In this document: positions 27,919 through 33,575 of the stretch, piece after piece
Numbering within the stretch: position 1 is the first letter of the stretch
Layout: each line of letters begins with the position of its first letter
Source of the DNA: Candidatus Egerieisoma sp.
Lineage (GTDB): Bacteria > Bacillota > Clostridia > UBA1212 > UBA1255
DNA length: 64,000 bases
Reading direction: 5' to 3'
Assembly: GCA_045580735.1 (NCBI GenBank)
Contig: JAZNOJ010000095.1
Coordinates: 14,787-78,786 of the forward strand
Translations under genes and position numbers: made by a program
The notes under the pieces: model-generated
Database searches by the model: none
What the model was told of the DNA's origin: nothing
What the model saw: only the letters and a program-made list of their open reading frames with translations

Positions 27919-29397
27919 ATGAAAGTGTTTAAAGAAAAACACGATTTGGAAACTGTAGTGAATAATATTTCAATGTCACTTGAAAAACAACCAAGGCCAA
28001 ATGATACATGTGAAAAAATTGACTTTACTGTTTCTAAAACTATTAGTTCAAACATGGTTGTTCAGAGAAATAATTATTTCAATGTATTCGGATGGTCAAA
28101 TAATTACGGTGGCGTAATATATGCAGATTTCATGGGTGAGACAAGATATGGTATTATAAATGATAATGGTGAATGGAGTATAAAATTTTCACCGCATGAG
28201 GCTACCTTTGAATCACAAACATTGAAAATATATCCTAGTAATGGAAATGCTATTGAATTTGAGGATATTTTAATCGGGGATGTATGGCTCGTTTCAGGTC
28301 AGTCAAATGCAGAACTTAATATGTCAGTATGCATTCCGCGGGATTTAGAATATAAAAATGAAATTAATAAAGAAGAAAAAATAAGGATTTTTTCTCAAAC
28401 AAGGGAATATGTAGTAGAACAGAAAAATGTTATTGATTTATCTGTTCCGCAAAGGGATGTTATAAATGATGAATGGAAATGGAACAAGGCCTCGTTTTCA
28501 GCGGTAAGCAGCTTCTCTGCCTTAGGTTATTATTTTGCAAATGAGCTGAGCAAAATGGCAAATATTCCATTAGGTGTTATTATGACAGCTGCAGGTGGTG
28601 CGACTATTCACGAATTGATGCCTAATAATGTATCTTTAGAGTGTAAGCCTAATTTTGTTCCTACAGTACCTGCAGGTGGTTTTTATAACTCTTTAATGTA
28701 TCCGTTTGTTAAAAATCCAATTACCGGAATGATTTTTTATCAAGGTGAAAGCGAATCTAATGCAGGTCATTATAAAACCTACGCAAACAATTTAATTAAA
28801 ACCTTTAATGGGTATAGAAAAGAATGGGGATTGAATTTTCCTATTATAAATGTTCAGCTTTCAACGCATGGAGAAGAAGGCTTTAAGGCGTGGTACGAAA
28901 TTCAAAATATTAGAGCTATACAATTTGATGTTACCAAAAAGCTGGATAATTGTTATTTGATAGTTTCAAGAGATCATGGAATAAGACCAGGTGATGATGA
29001 TTTTGGACACCCTAAATATAAGCATCAGCTTGGTGTAAGAGCCGCAAATGTGGCAGCAAAACACATTTATAGCATAGATATAGACGATGCACTGTTAAGT
29101 CCTGAGCCATGCAAGGTTACATGGAATATTGATAATGCTATAATTGATTTTTGTAACGTAGGAGAGGGCTTGAAATTACTTGATGGGCAGTGTCTTGCAG
29201 GCTTTACAGTATTAGATGCGGATGGAAATAATATTATATGTGAAGCAGAAATCATAGATGAGTGCTCTGTTAAAATAACATTTTCAGGACATGCTGCAAA
29301 ATTGCAATTTGCGATGCTTCCAAATGCAATAATACGTTATGGTAATTTAGGAAATAGCTTAGGCTTGCCGGCTCCATGTTTTGAAATAGATAAATAA
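27919..29397 (+). CDS. sialate O-acetylesterase-like SGNH/SASA-domain carbohydrate esterase (no signal peptide seen)
   Basis: LVSGQSNAE nucleophile block and the FYQGESESN block. Length is 492 aa. Confidence 0.7.
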   Translation: MKVFKEKHDLETVVNNISMSLEKQPRPNDTCEKIDFTVSKTISSNMVVQRNNYFNVFGWSNNYGGVIYADFMGETRYGIINDNGEWSIKFSPHEATFESQTLKIYPSNGNAIEFEDILIGDVWLVSGQSNAELNMSVCIPRDLEYKNEINKEEKIRIFSQTREYVVEQKNVIDLSVPQRDVINDEWKWNKASFSAVSSFSALGYYFANELSKMANIPLGVIMTAAGGATIHELMPNNVSLECKPNFVPTVPAGGFYNSLMYPFVKNPITGMIFYQGESESNAGHYKTYANNLIKTFNGYRKEWGLNFPIINVQLSTHGEEGFKAWYEIQNIRAIQFDVTKKLDNCYLIVSRDHGIRPGDDDFGHPKYKHQLGVRAANVAAKHIYSIDIDDALLSPEPCKVTWNIDNAIIDFCNVGEGLKLLDGQCLAGFTVLDADGNNIICEAEIIDECSVKITFSGHAAKLQFAMLPNAIIRYGNLGNSLGLPAPCFEIDK

Positions 29398-29404
29398 TTT
29401 TTTG

Positions 29405-29433
29405 TTGACATTAATGATATGCAGTATTAAAAT
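29405..29433 (+). promoter_or_regulatory. sigma-A promoter of the aroF-tyrA leader
   Basis: TTGACA (29405..29410), 17-nt spacer, TAAAAT (29428..29433). Confidence 0.7.
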
Positions 29434-29467
29434 ATAGCGGTAACATGGTAGGCGGGAGTTCATGATT

Positions 29468-29560
29468 ATGAAGAACAAATTGTTTACAACAGTATATTTT
29501 TATTTTTACTTTTACTTTTGCAATTATTTTATAAAAGTTAAAGAAGCTTCTGTTGTATAA
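29468..29560 (+). CDS. Phe/Tyr-rich leader peptide (30 aa: MKNKLFTTVYFYFYFYFCNYFIKVKEASVV)
   Basis: Read manually; it is below the ORF-track length cutoff. GGGAG (29454..29458) lies 9 nt upstream of ATG 29468, and an in-frame ATG at 29462 is too close to the RBS. 11 of 30 codons are Phe or Tyr, including the run TAT TTT TAT TTT TAC TTT TAC TTT. Confidence 0.75.
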   Translation: MKNKLFTTVYFYFYFYFCNYFIKVKEASVV

Positions 29561-29597
29561 ATTTTCATTGAATTTCTAAGGATTACGAAAGAATTTC

Positions 29598-29636
29598 ACC
29601 GTACGGCAGAAGAAAACCGTACGGTATTTTAATTTT
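29598..29636 (+). terminator. attenuator terminator immediately upstream of the aroF RBS
   Basis: ACCGTACGG (29598..29606) pairs perfectly with CCGTACGGT (29617..29625) across a 10-nt loop and is followed by ATTTTAATTTT. The aroF RBS AAGGAGG follows directly. Confidence 0.85.
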
Positions 29637-29652
29637 AAGGAGGAAATGAAGT

Positions 29653-30657
29653 ATGGTAACGGTATTAAAACCAGGAGTTACGGATGATCAAATTCAAAAT
29701 TTATGTAATTGGTTCAGCGCTAGAGGCTTAGATGTTCATATTTCAAAGGGGCATTATCAAACCATTATAGGTCTTATTGGAGATACAAAAAGAATTGATA
29801 CAGAGCTACTAGAGAGTTTGGAAATTGTAGAAACAGTAAAGACGATAAGTGAACCATTTAAAAATGCAAATAGAAAATTTCATCCGGATGATACAATAAT
29901 AGATGTCAATGGAGTTAAAATAGGCGGTGGACATTATGCCATTATTGCAGGTCCTTGTTCGGTTGAGTCTGAGGAGCAGATAATTGAGGTTGCAGTAAAA
30001 GTAAAGGCAGCAGGAGCTTCCATTTTAAGAGGTGGAGCTTTTAAACCGAGAACATCACCATATGATTTTCAGGGACTAAAGGATGAAGGAATTAAGCTAT
30101 TACTTGAGGCAAAGAAAATTACAGGAATGCCAATTATTACAGAAATAATGAATGCTAATCATCTTCCTATGTTTGAAGATGTTGATATTATTCAGGTTGG
30201 AGCAAGAAATATGCAAAATTTCGAGCTTTTAAAAGAACTTGGTAGAACTAAAAAGCCTATATTGTTAAAAAGAGGTCTTGCAAACAATCTAAAAGAGCTT
30301 TTAATGAGTGCAGAGTATATAATGGCAGGTGGAAATGAAAATATTATCCTTTGTGAAAGAGGCATAAGAACCTTTGAAACTTATACAAGAAATACTCTTG
30401 ACGTTTCTGCAATACCAATGCTACATGAGCTTTCACATTTACCTGTAGTTGCGGATCCTTCACACTCAGGTGGTATGGCGAGACTTGTTAAGCCTTTGGC
30501 ATTATCTTCTGCTGCTGCCGGAGCAGATGGACTTATGATTGAGGTGCACAACGATCCTAAAAATGCTTTATGTGATGGCGCTCAATCCCTTACACCTGAA
30601 CAATTTGCAGATGTAGCTGACAAAATCAAAAAGGTTTATGAGGTGTGTGGTTCATGA
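29653..30657 (+). CDS. aroF: 3-deoxy-7-phosphoheptulonate (DAHP) synthase, type I-beta, with N-terminal ferredoxin-like regulatory domain
   Basis: Core motifs GPCSVES, FKPRTSPYDFQG and DPSH. About 75 extra N-terminal residues match the arrangement in the Thermotoga-type Tyr/Phe-inhibited enzyme. Confidence 0.9.
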   Translation: MVTVLKPGVTDDQIQNLCNWFSARGLDVHISKGHYQTIIGLIGDTKRIDTELLESLEIVETVKTISEPFKNANRKFHPDDTIIDVNGVKIGGGHYAIIAGPCSVESEEQIIEVAVKVKAAGASILRGGAFKPRTSPYDFQGLKDEGIKLLLEAKKITGMPIITEIMNANHLPMFEDVDIIQVGARNMQNFELLKELGRTKKPILLKRGLANNLKELLMSAEYIMAGGNENIILCERGIRTFETYTRNTLDVSAIPMLHELSHLPVVADPSHSGGMARLVKPLALSSAAAGADGLMIEVHNDPKNALCDGAQSLTPEQFADVADKIKKVYEVCGS

Positions 30658-31484
30658 CAGTCGGAATCGTTGGATTAGGACTTATTGGGGGATCTTTTGC
30701 TAAGGCTTATAAAGAAGCAGGTTGGAATGTATATGTTCATGATATAGATGATGCAATGTTGGAATTTGCTAAACTAAAGGGCGTCGTTGATGATCCGCTT
30801 GATAAAGACAATATAGAACAATGTGACTTAATCCTTGTGTGTATTTATCCCAATGCAGCCATTGAATACATTGATGAAATGGGTAAGTATATTTCAAAAA
30901 ATACCTTCGTTGTAGATTGCTGTGGTACAAAGGAAAAAATATGTGATGTGTATTTTGCTGAAGCTGCGAAGTATGGCTTTACCTATGTAGGAGGTCATCC
31001 TATGGCAGGAACTCAATATTCAGGCTTCAAATTTAGCAAACCAGATTTGTTTAAAGGTGCATATATGGTACTTGTTCCTCCAATATGTGATGATATGGCA
31101 TTTTTTGATAAATTAAAAGAATTACTTTCTCCTGCAGGCTTTGGGCATTATTCAATTATCTCTGCACAGGAGCATGATAAGATAATAGCATTTACATCAC
31201 AGCTTGCACACGTTGTATCGAATGCATATATAAAAAGTCCAACGGCACGTATTCATAAAGGCTTTTCAGCAGGAAGCTATAGGGATCTCACTCGGGTTGC
31301 GTGGCTCAATGAAGATATGTGGTCGGAGCTTTGCATGGAAAATAGGGATAATATGATTAGTGAATTAGATATTATTATAAAAGAATTATGCAAATACAAA
31401 GCTGCATTAGAATCTGAAGATAAAGCAAAATTGAAATCCCTATTTGCTGATGGTAAAAAAATTAAATATGAAATAGATGGATGA
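30654..31484 (+). CDS. tyrA: prephenate dehydrogenase
   Basis: NAD fingerprint IVGLGLIGGS and the GGHPMAG motif. An ATGA overlap with the aroF stop suggests translational coupling. The ORF-track GTG 30645 is less likely. Confidence 0.88.
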   Translation: MTVGIVGLGLIGGSFAKAYKEAGWNVYVHDIDDAMLEFAKLKGVVDDPLDKDNIEQCDLILVCIYPNAAIEYIDEMGKYISKNTFVVDCCGTKEKICDVYFAEAAKYGFTYVGGHPMAGTQYSGFKFSKPDLFKGAYMVLVPPICDDMAFFDKLKELLSPAGFGHYSIISAQEHDKIIAFTSQLAHVVSNAYIKSPTARIHKGFSAGSYRDLTRVAWLNEDMWSELCMENRDNMISELDIIIKELCKYKAALESEDKAKLKSLFADGKKIKYEIDG

Positions 31485-31537
31485 ATTTAATTTTATGAAA
31501 AAGCTTCTTAAAATTTTTAGGAAAATTTTTGAAAAAA

Positions 31538-31578
31538 TTGTATTCTGTTTATATTATGTGTTATAATTAGGATAATTA
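31538..31578 (+). promoter_or_regulatory. candidate dfx promoter (TTGTAT, 18 nt, extended -10 TGtTATAAT) overlapped by a PerR/Fur-like 7-1-7 element
   Basis: The -10 TATAAT is at 31562..31567 and is preceded by TGT. TTATAATTAGGATAA (31561..31575) matches 12 of the 14 specified positions of the Bacillus PerR-box consensus TTATAATnATTATAA. The AT-rich context makes chance matches easy. Confidence 0.35.
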
Positions 31579-31599
31579 TTTTGAAAGGCGGTTCTTTTT

Positions 31600-32220
31600 A
31601 TGAAACAAAGATTTTTTATATGTAAGCATTGTGGTAATATTTTAGCTATGGTAAAAGATAAGGGTATGCCTGTTTTATGCTGTGGAGAAATAATGTCAGA
31701 GATAATTCCGGGAAGTACAGATGCATCAACAGAAAAGCACATTCCCGTTTTTACTATAGACAAAAATAAGGTGTATGTTGTTGTGGGTGAGGTTGAGCAT
31801 CCTATGACCGATGAGCATTACATAGAATGGATATCAATTCAAACAAAACAGGGAAATCAACGAAAATGTCTTTTACCTTCAGATAAGCCTGTGGCATGCT
31901 TCTCAATATGCGATGGAGACGAGGTAGAAGCTGTATATGCATATTGTAACTTACATAGTTTATGGGTTTCTGAAAATAAGATTGAACCAGTGTGTGACTT
32001 GAAACCACTTGATACAAATTCTATTGAAAATTATGTAATATGTAAATGTAATGATGTTTCTTATTTTGATATATTAGATGCGGTGCATCGTGAAACAAAT
32101 ATAAATAGTCTTCTGTCAGTTTTTGACAAAGTAAAAAATACAACACACTGCTCTACCGGCTGTGGAGGTTGCTATAACAAGGTAATTGCTGTTATATCGG
32201 AAGAAATGAATAGAAAATAA
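31600..32220 (+). CDS. dfx: desulfoferrodoxin (2Fe superoxide reductase) fused to a C-terminal BFD-like [2Fe-2S]-binding domain
   Basis: N-terminal desulforedoxin-type CKHCGN...LCCG. SOR centre II ligands lie in EKHIPV, HPMTDEHYIEW and CNLHSLW. The extra C-terminal 80 aa carry CKC...CSTGCGGC, the Fer2_BFD cysteine pattern. Confidence 0.8.
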   Translation: MKQRFFICKHCGNILAMVKDKGMPVLCCGEIMSEIIPGSTDASTEKHIPVFTIDKNKVYVVVGEVEHPMTDEHYIEWISIQTKQGNQRKCLLPSDKPVACFSICDGDEVEAVYAYCNLHSLWVSENKIEPVCDLKPLDTNSIENYVICKCNDVSYFDILDAVHRETNINSLLSVFDKVKNTTHCSTGCGGCYNKVIAVISEEMNRK

Positions 32221-32225
32221 GCTTC

Positions 32226-32266
32226 AAAGAGCTTTCTCTTAAAATTGAGAAAGCTCTTTTTTATTT
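32226..32266 (+). terminator. rho-independent terminator after dfx
   Basis: AAAGAGCTTTCTC (32226..32238) pairs perfectly with GAGAAAGCTCTTT (32247..32259), giving 13 bp and an 8-nt loop, then TTTATTT. Confidence 0.9.
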
Positions 32267-32336
32267 GTTGCGAAGAAAAAGGATTTGGGGTAAAATAATA
32301 TAATAATTTTTATTATTTACAAAAGGAGTACTTATT

Positions 32337-33575
32337 ATGATATCAGAAAATATTAAGAATAAATTTATCGAAGCAGGTCAGGAACATTTATTCAAATACG
32401 AAAATGAATTAGATGAATCTCAGCAAAAATCCTTAGAAGCACAGCTAAGTAATATTAATCTAGATTTAATTACTAGATTATACAATCAAACTAAGCAAAA
32501 GGTAGCTGAAACAAACTTAAATATTGAACCGGTTAGCTGTGATTTGAAGCAAAATTGGAGTGAAGATACAAGAAAAAAATATGCTCATACAGGTGAAGAA
32601 CTAATCAAAAGCGGAAAATATGCAGTTGTAACTATGGCAGGTGGACAGGGAACCAGATTAGGACATGACGGACCAAAAGGTACGTTTTATGTTAATGTTC
32701 CTGAGCACATATCTTTATTTGAAATACAATGTAACAGATTAAAAAAAGCAAATGAAGCATATAAATGTATAATACCATGGTATATTATGACTAGTGAAGA
32801 AAATAACGCTGCAACGATAGCCTTCTTTGAAGAAAATAATTACTTTGGGTATCCAAAAGAAAACATTTACTTTTTTAAACAATATATGCTTCCAATGATT
32901 GATGTAAACGGAAAAATTATACTTGATGAAAAGCACAAAATTAAAGAAGGTGCTGATGGTCACGGTGGTATTTTTAGGGCAATCATCGGCAGAGGTATTC
33001 TAGATGACATGAAAAAAAGAGGTGTAGAATGGATTTTTACATGTGGAATTGACAATATTTTAGTTCGTCCTGCTGATGCAGAGTTTATTGGATTTGTTGC
33101 GGCATCAGGATATAAATTAGGAGGAAAGTCACTTGTAAAAAGAGATGCTTATGAAAAGGCAGGTGTATTCTGTAAGAAAAATTCCAGAGCTTCTGTAGTA
33201 GAATATACTGAAATACCTAAGGAATTGGCAGAACTAAAAAATGAATCAGGCCAGTTTGTGTACGCAGATGCACATATTTTATGTAATCTTTTCCATGTTG
33301 ATGTATTTGGTAAAATGGGTGGAGAAGGACTTCCTTATCATGAGGCATTTAAGAAGGCTCCATATATTAATGAAAACGGTGAAAGAATTATACCGGAAGA
33401 GCCAAATGCTTATAAGTTCGAAGCATTTATATTTGACGCTTTTGAGTATTATGAGGATATGGGAATATTGAGAGTTGAAAGAAATAAAGAATTTGCACCT
33501 ATCAAAAATAAAACAGGAGAGGATAGTCCTGAATCAGCACAAAAATTATATCTCGATGATATAGCGGAGGAATAA
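32337..33575 (+). CDS. UDPGP-family UDP-sugar (UDP-N-acetylhexosamine-type) pyrophosphorylase
   Basis: Glycine-rich loop MAGGQGTRLGHDGPKG and overall UAP1-like layout. Length is 412 aa. Confidence 0.75.
   Translation: MISENIKNKFIEAGQEHLFKYENELDESQQKSLEAQLSNINLDLITRLYNQTKQKVAETNLNIEPVSCDLKQNWSEDTRKKYAHTGEELIKSGKYAVVTMAGGQGTRLGHDGPKGTFYVNVPEHISLFEIQCNRLKKANEAYKCIIPWYIMTSEENNAATIAFFEENNYFGYPKENIYFFKQYMLPMIDVNGKIILDEKHKIKEGADGHGGIFRAIIGRGILDDMKKRGVEWIFTCGIDNILVRPADAEFIGFVAASGYKLGGKSLVKRDAYEKAGVFCKKNSRASVVEYTEIPKELAELKNESGQFVYADAHILCNLFHVDVFGKMGGEGLPYHEAFKKAPYINENGERIIPEEPNAYKFEAFIFDAFEYYEDMGILRVERNKEFAPIKNKTGEDSPESAQKLYLDDIAEE

Follow-up and report, generated by a model that had tools for sequence, protein, structure and literature searches.

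How does an uncultured, low-GC (34.5%) member of the Clostridia adjust transcription of its aroF-tyrA genes? We addressed this question in a 64,000-nucleotide stretch of Candidatus Egerieisoma sp. (contig JAZNOJ010000095.1), referred to in its full length as the window, in which a short open reading frame (ORF) with alternating Tyr and Phe codons lies between a promoter and a terminator upstream of aroF. An earlier note on this DNA had read the region as an attenuator of the trp/phe type. Having compared the window with related loci, we consider it highly probable that the element is a ribosome-mediated (leader-peptide) attenuator, which would sense charged tRNA-Tyr and tRNA-Phe and control read-through into aroF-tyrA. 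Positions are those of the window, and all its features described below are on the + strand.

The leader ORF (29468..29560) comprises 30 codons followed by TAA (29558-29560), encodes MKNKLFTTVYFYFYFYFCNYFIKVKEASVV with 6 Phe and 5 Tyr, and is preceded by the Shine-Dalgarno (SD) sequence GGGAG (29454..29458), 9 nucleotides (nt) before the ATG at 29468. The ORF listing starts this leader at an in-frame ATG at 29462, and the ATG conserved in the related locus L081 is that at 29468 only. Eight consecutive codons form the regulatory run YFYFYFYF (29495..29518; TAT TTT TAT TTT TAC TTT TAC TTT), after which a second Tyr-Phe codon pair follows at 29525-29530. This was the sole short ORF with at least 7 Tyr/Phe in 10 residues in the 64-kb window, both strands included. 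Upstream lies a sigma-70-type promoter (29405..29433), with TTGACA at 29405-29410, a 17-nt spacer and TAAAAT at 29428-29433, which is an 11/12 match and the top promoter-like site in 28900-32500; the predicted transcription start is at about 29440. Its hexamers and 17-nt spacing are also found in the close relatives L081-L090, with TACAAT as the second hexamer in L089 and L090.

Downstream of the ORF, terminator arms at 29598-29606 (ACCGTACGG) and 29617-29625 (CCGTACGGT) form 9 bp around a 10-nt loop (-13.4 kcal/mol). Segment 3 (29598..29612) comprises the 5' arm and the first 6 loop bases, and segment 4 (29617..29636) the 3' arm and the tail ATTTTAATTTT (29626-29636). A simple terminator scan missed this hairpin because the 10-nt loop exceeds the limit of the scan, and the loop probably has this size because it encodes part of the antiterminator strand.

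Segment 2 (29532..29558) ends at the leader stop codon and contains 29532-29544, which pairs with Tyr/Phe codons, 29550-29557, which pairs with 29485-29492, and the 5' strand of the antiterminator (29547-29558). The complementarity of CTTCTGTTGTA (29547-29557) to TACGGCAGAAG (29602-29612) in segment 3 was lengthened by RNAduplex to 12 bp (29547-29558 with 29601-29612), with 3 G.U pairs and an energy of -16.4 kcal/mol; of the 9 bases in the 5' arm of the terminator, 6 are thereby occupied. The window 2:3 duplex had a z of -7 against shuffled segment 2, and among 68 candidate partners for the window segment 2 its own segment 3 ranked first. When the RNA was cut at 29613, before the terminator 3' arm, the minimum free energy (MFE) structure was the 2:3 hairpin (29546-29613, -17.3 kcal/mol), and masking 29543-29571, as by a ribosome at the stop codon, removed the 12-bp 2:3 helix in this RNA lacking the 3' arm. 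The inner stems of the antiterminator hairpin (29559..29596; 29559-29565 with 29590-29596 and 29568-29575 with 29580-29588) are a prediction for the window only.

Segment 1, the 5' strand of the anti-antiterminator, spans 29485..29514 (29485-29492, 29497-29502 and 29508-29514). It begins with TACAACAG (29485-29492), the perfect complement of CTGTTGTA (29550-29557), and continues into the Tyr/Phe codons at 29497-29502 and 29508-29514, which pair with 29532-29544, so that the 1:2 duplex with 29532-29557 comprises 21 bp interrupted by internal loops (-14.4 kcal/mol by RNAduplex, or -12.1 kcal/mol as a hairpin). The near-consensus promoter, the SD-preceded ORF with its residue counts and run, the 9-bp terminator and the 2:3 pairing, given as 11 bp, had all been described in the earlier note and were recovered here. 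Its segment 1 (29485..29492) had the correct complement at 29550..29557 but was drawn too short, since Tyr/Phe codons also take part in the 1:2 helix. In the MFE structure of the free leader RNA alone, the SD region (29448-29460, GCGGGAGUU) paired with the pyrimidine-rich part of segment 2 (29545-29558, AGCUUCUGU), which would hide the leader ribosome-binding site (RBS) on untranslated RNA. This pairing was set aside as a regulatory feature, the segment 2 sequence differing in most family members.

To place the leader in its lineage, we scanned one genome per species for DAHP synthase relatives, yielding 80 loci (66-77% identity) from Oscillospiraceae, Acutalibacteraceae, Ruminococcus, Faecalibacterium, Lachnospiraceae and Anaerovoracaceae, among them the isolates Sporobacter termitidis, Angelakisella massiliensis, Flintibacter faecis, Pseudoflavonifractor and Hominicoprocola. 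A short ATG-started ORF with at least 6 Tyr/Phe in 10 residues was present in 70 of these loci, 70-290 nt upstream of the DAHP synthase gene. With a threshold of at least 7 in 10, such ORFs were found in 59 of the 80 upstream regions (35.5 kb) against 1 ORF in 936 kb of flanks (both strands), and with at least 8 in 10 in 32 upstream regions against none in the flanks. Chance low complexity in a 34.5% GC genome was rejected on the basis of these flank controls and of the ORF control within the window.

The runs of the family have a median length of 8 codons (range 6-10) and differ by nucleotide (YFYFYFYF, YFFYFFFYF, YYYYYFF, FYFDYYYFF). In the Tyr/Phe frame, 70 of 70 loci have an ATG ORF that spans the run, compared with 4 and 1 for the two alternative frames. 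In 61 of 70 the leader ATG is preceded, at a distance of 4-16 nt, by an SD-like 4-mer, and Trp codons are nearly absent, only 2 leaders containing Trp. The conserved trait is an open frame of aromatic codons and not a nucleotide repeat. The leader peptides are 17-42 amino acids (aa) long and vary freely outside the run, with the exception of a common FAA(A/E)-type stretch before it, a stretch that also forms one side of the 1:2 helix. In 68 of the 70 loci the leader is followed by a hairpin of -10 to -29 kcal/mol with a U-run, located 21-147 nt upstream of the gene, and the 2 leaders without a terminator call match the family model strongly.

After the run, the family shares a segment 2 motif with the consensus AAAGUAAnAGyGAUUUGUGCUGCA, which is kept both where it falls within the ORF (translated there as KSKSDLCC or KVKVLFAA) and where it falls past the stop codon. 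As segment 2 is kept whether translated or not, the constraint acts on the RNA. The 5' half of the motif is complementary to the Tyr/Phe codons (UACUUUUACUUU), and the 3' half to two elements, UUUGCAGC ahead of the run and the upper part of the terminator hairpin.

Several variants of the leader were also observed. Tyr-only leaders stood in two further loci of the 80 (e.g. MARYAYYYVLYGKCRA). Variants of this type at L037:2848-2925, L052 and L070 (MARYAYYYVLYGKCRA, MKHFRFVDYYYALYQPGRA, MSSSRFGYYYYYVLCSLCRA) come from higher-GC genomes, including a Faecalibacterium metagenome-assembled genome, and the Tyr-only variant scores weakly with the family model (24.6 bits). At L087-L090 (about 1290-1400; 84-85% DAHP synthase identity) the leader starts with TTG instead of ATG, with GGAGG 7-8 nt upstream, and ATG-only ORF screens therefore undercount the family. 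At L085 and L086 (1240-1500; DAHP synthase 89% identical to that of the window; protein P0017 on 45 contigs) the promoter, the conserved 5' untranslated region (UTR; ATGGTAGGCGGAG) and the terminator are kept and the whole leader ORF, including the Tyr/Phe run, is deleted; a 28-codon ORF (MVGGAFRSSKNNFYRTAEKSVRYFLFEV) runs from an ATG in the 5' UTR through the terminator, its Phe-Tyr codons abutting the terminator 5' arm.

We then assessed the three helices on the unedited MAFFT alignment of 68 leaders (A1), using as slid controls the same helices with partners shifted by 1-3 columns. The 1:2 and 2:3 helices were projected from one reference (L023), a procedure that biases the percentage of paired cells. 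On this basis, 76% of cells were paired in the termination conformer (1:2 plus 3:4) against 39-50% when slid, and 70% in the antiterminator 2:3 against 32-51%. Covariation reached 0.339 for 1:2 plus 3:4 against about 0.11 (0 of 500 shuffles as high) and 0.221 for 2:3 against 0.07-0.16 (1 of 500 shuffles as high). A permutation test of cognate against non-cognate partners, which is free of both the L023 projection and the alignment register, gave mean 2:3 duplex energies of -16.8 and -11.9 kcal/mol, respectively (z = -13.5, 0 of 10,000 permutations), and mean 1:2 duplex energies of -19.8 and -14.9 kcal/mol (z = -14). The terminator helix has compensatory changes in every pair, and so do all 10 RNAalifold pairs; run on the MAFFT alignment, RNAalifold predicted the terminator only, without the 1:2 and 2:3 helices.

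The same holds close to the window: in relatives whose DAHP synthase is 84-97% identical, the 2:3 helix (-14.8 to -18.1 kcal/mol) persists through changes in both strands, for example CUUC/GAAG in the window and GUUUC/GAAAC in L081, and an A:U pair of the 1:2 helix is replaced by G:C between the window (ACAACAG/CUGUUGU) and L081 (ACAGCAG/CUGCUGU). The terminator stem of the window is the same in L081 and L083 and has one G.U in L087 and L089, and the U-tracts are stronger in all four. A covariance model (R1, built from alignment A2 with 67 members, leaving out the window and its close relatives) matched the window at 29477-29635 over the full model length with 52.1 bits (E-value 2.2e-9), the next best match in the window scoring 18.6 bits (E-value 0.15). 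The recurrence of the run and of the pairings in relatives, which the earlier note had put forward as a check, was thus borne out: the run is kept in 70 of 80 loci, and the 1:2, 2:3 and 3:4 helices co-vary.

For the geometry, we used a footprint model in which the ribosome covers -15/+13 nt. With a ribosome stalled on the last codon of the run, at least 80% of the segment 2 core was free in 66 of the 68 loci, and with a ribosome at the stop codon at least 50% of it was masked in 58 of the 68, in agreement with the classical arrangement that had been proposed for the window.

From this arrangement we infer translation of the leader, stalling, a kinetic order of folding and a response to Tyr and Phe, as follows. 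Transcription would start from the promoter at 29405-29433, and a ribosome would load at the SD sequence and the ATG at 29468 and translate the leader as RNA polymerase advances. Should Tyr-tRNA or Phe-tRNA be scarce, the ribosome would stall within YFYFYFYF (29495-29518) and cover segment 1, leaving segment 2 (29547-29558) free to pair once 29601-29612 emerges; the resulting 12-bp antiterminator, with its inner stems a hairpin of -17 kcal/mol, would sequester 6 of the 9 bases in the 5' arm of the terminator while its 3' arm is still to be transcribed, allowing read-through into aroF-tyrA. With both tRNAs charged, the ribosome would reach the stop codon at 29558 and mask segment 2 with a footprint of about 29543-29571, so that the antiterminator would not form, the hairpin at 29598-29625 would, and transcription would end at the U-tract. 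On untranslated RNA, segment 1, including the Tyr/Phe codons, could pair with segment 2 and would also favor termination.

A number of observations weigh against this mechanism. The window has a weak 1:2 helix, whose -12 to -14 kcal/mol fall short of the -17.3 kcal/mol of 2:3, and untranslated window RNA might on these predicted energies antiterminate instead of terminate. The U-tract of the window is interrupted (AUUUUAAUUUU) and its terminator loop has 10 nt, both of which bear on the efficiency of termination. In 10 of the 68 loci a ribosome at the stop codon would sit too far upstream to mask most of segment 2. Because the Tyr/Phe codons also form one side of a conserved helix, they are conserved in part as RNA. 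L085 and L086 lack the leader yet retain the terminator, which can therefore persist without this sensor. Lastly, equilibrium folding of the full leader retains the terminator in 66-67 of the 68 loci under every ribosome mask. As the terminator wins at equilibrium whatever the mask, the switch must be kinetic, and it rests on an assumed kinetic order of folding. Constrained equilibrium folding, suggested in the earlier note as a check, is for the same reason not diagnostic, and we replaced it by folding of RNA cut before the 3' arm together with the duplex-energy and covariation tests; the raw count of 5'-arm pairs in the cut RNA was rejected as too unspecific to use alone.

Other explanations would keep some of these elements and give the leader another role. 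The terminator/antiterminator switch could be real and be set by a factor acting in trans, either a tRNA as on a T-box or a TRAP- or PyrR-like protein bound to UAY/UUY repeats, with the ORF incidental. T-boxes or TRAP are often used for aromatic genes in Firmicutes, and the Tyr/Phe run is both a periodic U-rich tract (UAC UUU repeats), readable by an oligomeric RNA-binding protein, and one strand of a conserved helix. We nevertheless hold such a factor to be highly improbable. A search of Rfam at E-values up to 10 over 28900-30200 returned five chance-level matches only (e.g. snoRNAs and VrrA), with neither a T-box (which we take to be RF00230) nor an amino-acid leader family among them (presumably the Phe, Trp, His, Thr and Leu leaders and a Lactococcus leu/phe leader). 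At the gathering score, the whole window and 11 loci, 10 of which had scored as leader-less in a first ATG-based screen, gave no T-box or other match, the outcome that the earlier note had expected. The T-box core GNTGGNACC is absent from the window leader, which does not qualify as a T-box, and a regex scan of 29400-29660 found no TRAP-type (G/U)AG triplets spaced 2-3 nt. Moreover, SD, ATG and open frame are conserved specifically in the Tyr/Phe frame, the run varies by nucleotide (YYYYY, FFF, YFFYFFF) while staying aromatic by codon, and the placement of the stop codon tracks segment 2, all of which fit a translating ribosome better than a trans factor.

Another reading, which we regard as very unlikely, is a leader that is translated without sensing aminoacyl-tRNA, acting through nascent-peptide arrest in response to a small molecule (as in TnaC and Erm leaders) or reporting the overall rate of translation. 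The peptide is poorly conserved outside the run save for the FAA(A/E)-type stretch, which is a strand of the 1:2 helix, and segment 2 either varies in its protein reading (KSKSDLCC, KVKVLFAA) or lies past the stop codon. Aromatic runs could contact the ribosomal exit tunnel, and arrest leaders do exist in Firmicutes (PMC8632094; an ermBL paper), but arrest by free Tyr or Phe would follow the wrong logic, turning biosynthesis on at times of product abundance, and the regulated genes all serve aromatic amino-acid supply, as suits codon-specific sensing of starvation. Least probable of all, in our estimate, is a functional small protein, hydrophobic or aromatic, as the product of the short ORF, with the hairpin as the plain terminator of this small gene or of the upstream esterase gene. 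Leader peptides are unnamed in public data, though more than 1000 contigs have gene calls for their 37-aa forms, and no terminator was detected between the upstream gene (stop at 29397) and the promoter, so the hairpin could end upstream transcripts. Such a protein is hard to reconcile with a length (17-42 aa) and a non-run sequence that vary freely and with the lack of any Pfam or NCBIfam match for five leader peptides; in all 68 loci with a terminator found, a same-strand gene of aromatic biosynthesis or uptake lies 21-147 nt past it, and the co-variation of a 2:3 helix that competes with the terminator is left unexplained.

The Tyr/Phe-sensing attenuator agrees in its logic with known systems. 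The pheA (pheL), pheST (pheM) and trp attenuators of E. coli have the same four segments, with the codons in segment 1, a 2:3 antiterminator and a 3:4 terminator, and there too the terminator is thermodynamically favored and control is kinetic, as proposed here (PMC3082878, PMC11802643); they differ in being proteobacterial and in reading one amino acid (Phe or Trp), whereas the window leader would read two from alternating codons. In Corynebacterium glutamicum, according to the account of Neshat et al. (2014) given in PMC11802643, the leader peptide aroR with Phe-Tyr-Phe lies upstream of the aroF operon, and stalling was shown experimentally to raise transcription under Phe limitation, Tyr supply having no effect in that account. 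Like the window element, aroR has Phe and Tyr codons before an operon that starts with a DAHP synthase gene; compared by description, it differs in belonging to the Actinobacteria and in having three aromatic codons, against runs of 6-10.

Within or near the Firmicutes, a close published analogue is uORFC-13-1 (Brewer et al., 2021; PMC8632094), a predicted upstream ORF (uORF) with promoter, RBS, start codon and a U-rich run coding for Phe, found directly upstream of an intrinsic terminator and exclusively before aroF in 24 sequences from Acholeplasma (Firmicutes-related) and unknown environmental organisms. Compared by its published description only, it agrees with the window family in gene context and general architecture; that description has at least one Phe codon, no Tyr/Phe run and no antiterminator model. 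His leaders are known from the Bacillus cereus group, Peptostreptococcaceae and Erysipelotrichales (PMC9413887, PMC2965389) and a Leu leader from Streptococcus (PMC5314783). These share the phylum and the proposed mechanism of the window element, and leader peptides thus replace T-boxes in several Firmicutes lineages, but they concern other amino acids and operons, with no aromatic amino acids and no Oscillospirales or Lachnospirales. T-boxes and TRAP likewise use a terminator/antiterminator switch to control target genes of this class (Streptococcus suis trpXYZ, for example, is T-box controlled; PMC9382623), with a tRNA or a protein as the sensor and not a translating ribosome. The view of the earlier note that leader-peptide attenuation is unusual for this lineage was overstated because leaders have been published from Firmicutes and related organisms (His, Leu, the Acholeplasma aroF uORF); with a leader in 70 of the 80 related loci, it is the usual arrangement for this DAHP synthase in these Clostridia. 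A literature search returned analogues only and no description of a Tyr/Phe aroF leader family in Clostridia, and Rfam 15 has no model matching it.

The genes behind the leader are those that had been named from the sequence. aroF (29637..30657; RBS AAGGAGG at 29637-29643, with GGAGG at 29639-29643; ORF 29653-30657, ATG at 29653) encodes a type I-beta DAHP synthase whose N-terminal regulatory domain, also expected from the earlier reading, is a ferredoxin-like (FXD) domain (Pfam PF18152 and PF00793; NCBIfam NF006421, 483 bits). The protein aligned over its full length to PDB chains 1RZM, 3PG9 and 1VR6, which we take to be the DAHP synthase of Thermotoga maritima. That enzyme is subject to feedback inhibition by Tyr and Phe. 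tyrA (30645..31484) overlaps aroF by 13 nt and encodes a prephenate dehydrogenase (Pfam PDH_N and PDH_C). In E. coli, the aroF-tyrA operon is controlled by the TyrR repressor. No terminator was detected directly after tyrA (31485-32260), and the 3' end of the aroF-tyrA transcript is uncertain; a 115-nt gap with a promoter-like site (31529-31557) is followed by a desulfoferrodoxin-BFD fusion gene (31600-32220) and a strong terminator (32226-32259). In close relatives the gene after tyrA is a different one (UDPGP or nucleoside hydrolase). On the other side, 8 nt separate the end of a SASA-family esterase gene (27919-29397) from the -35 hexamer, and no terminator was detected between the two; upstream transcripts probably run into the leader and would be subject to the attenuator.

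In 57 of the 68 related loci with a leader, the gene right after that for DAHP synthase encodes a TyrA homologue, and ten other downstream proteins that were inspected included six AroB-like proteins (three confirmed by Pfam) and one PheA. To extend the regulon, we scanned metagenomes with a consensus run-plus-segment-2 pattern, yielding 120 loci (L091-L210), of which 12 had no gene assignment, being too short downstream of the motif or apparently chimeric. In 92 of the 120, a count to which two abundant species contribute most, an ATP-binding cassette (ABC) transporter operon lies downstream of the leader, segment 2 motif and terminator (e.g. L102:1150-4200, L093 and L126; leaders MKFAASANLYFGYSYFYFYFAKVKAICDAQQRKSA and MLKQYQAYAYSFYFYFTFTDEVKAICDAQKRC). 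This operon encodes a PF04392 lipoprotein/binding protein, a BPD_transp_2 permease and an ATPase. The best NCBIfam match of the PF04392 protein was TrpX (231 bits, below the model cut-off), and the TrpX-like ABC transporter is probably a Tyr/Phe importer under the same sensor. The leader stands before a DAHP synthase gene in 14 of the 120 loci, before chorismate mutase-prephenate dehydratase and then aroB in one (L129:1-1980), and in one (L194:2600-4200, leader MINTAFVFVFAFYFYFTNFKVRVICVANES) before a gene for a PaaK-like phenylacetate-CoA ligase (E-value 1e-123, partial query), which hints at regulated synthesis of Phe from phenylacetate. The leader thus acts like a cassette that can move among genes of aromatic amino-acid supply, and its occurrence before several such operons is independent support for the role of a Tyr/Phe sensor.

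The mechanism itself is textbook and not new; the family is well supported and appears to be uncatalogued. We lean, with somewhat better than even confidence, toward regarding it as a large undescribed class of Tyr/Phe leaders, in which a modular cassette would sense two amino acids through alternating codons and act as the principal control of aromatic amino-acid supply in Clostridia of gut and rumen (Oscillospirales, Lachnospirales, Anaerovoracaceae). If so, the class would be placed before non-homologous operons (aroF-tyrA, aroF-aroB, pheA-aroB, the TrpX-like ABC transporter and the PaaK-like gene) and would hold there the place that T-boxes and TRAP have in Bacilli. These leader ORFs are either overlooked by gene callers or annotated as unnamed proteins, and a curated Rfam model would improve the annotation of many genomes. 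Because the leader would mark genes responsive to Tyr/Phe starvation, it could serve in predicting function, for instance of the TrpX-like ABC transporter and the PaaK-like ligase. It would also provide a clear case of one attenuator for two amino acids, read from alternating codons, in which the sensed codons double as a strand of a regulatory helix. For the abundant and mostly uncultured Clostridia of gut and rumen, the leader would offer a model for control of entry into the shikimate pathway, in which regulation of transcription would be added to the feedback inhibition presumed to act through the FXD domain.

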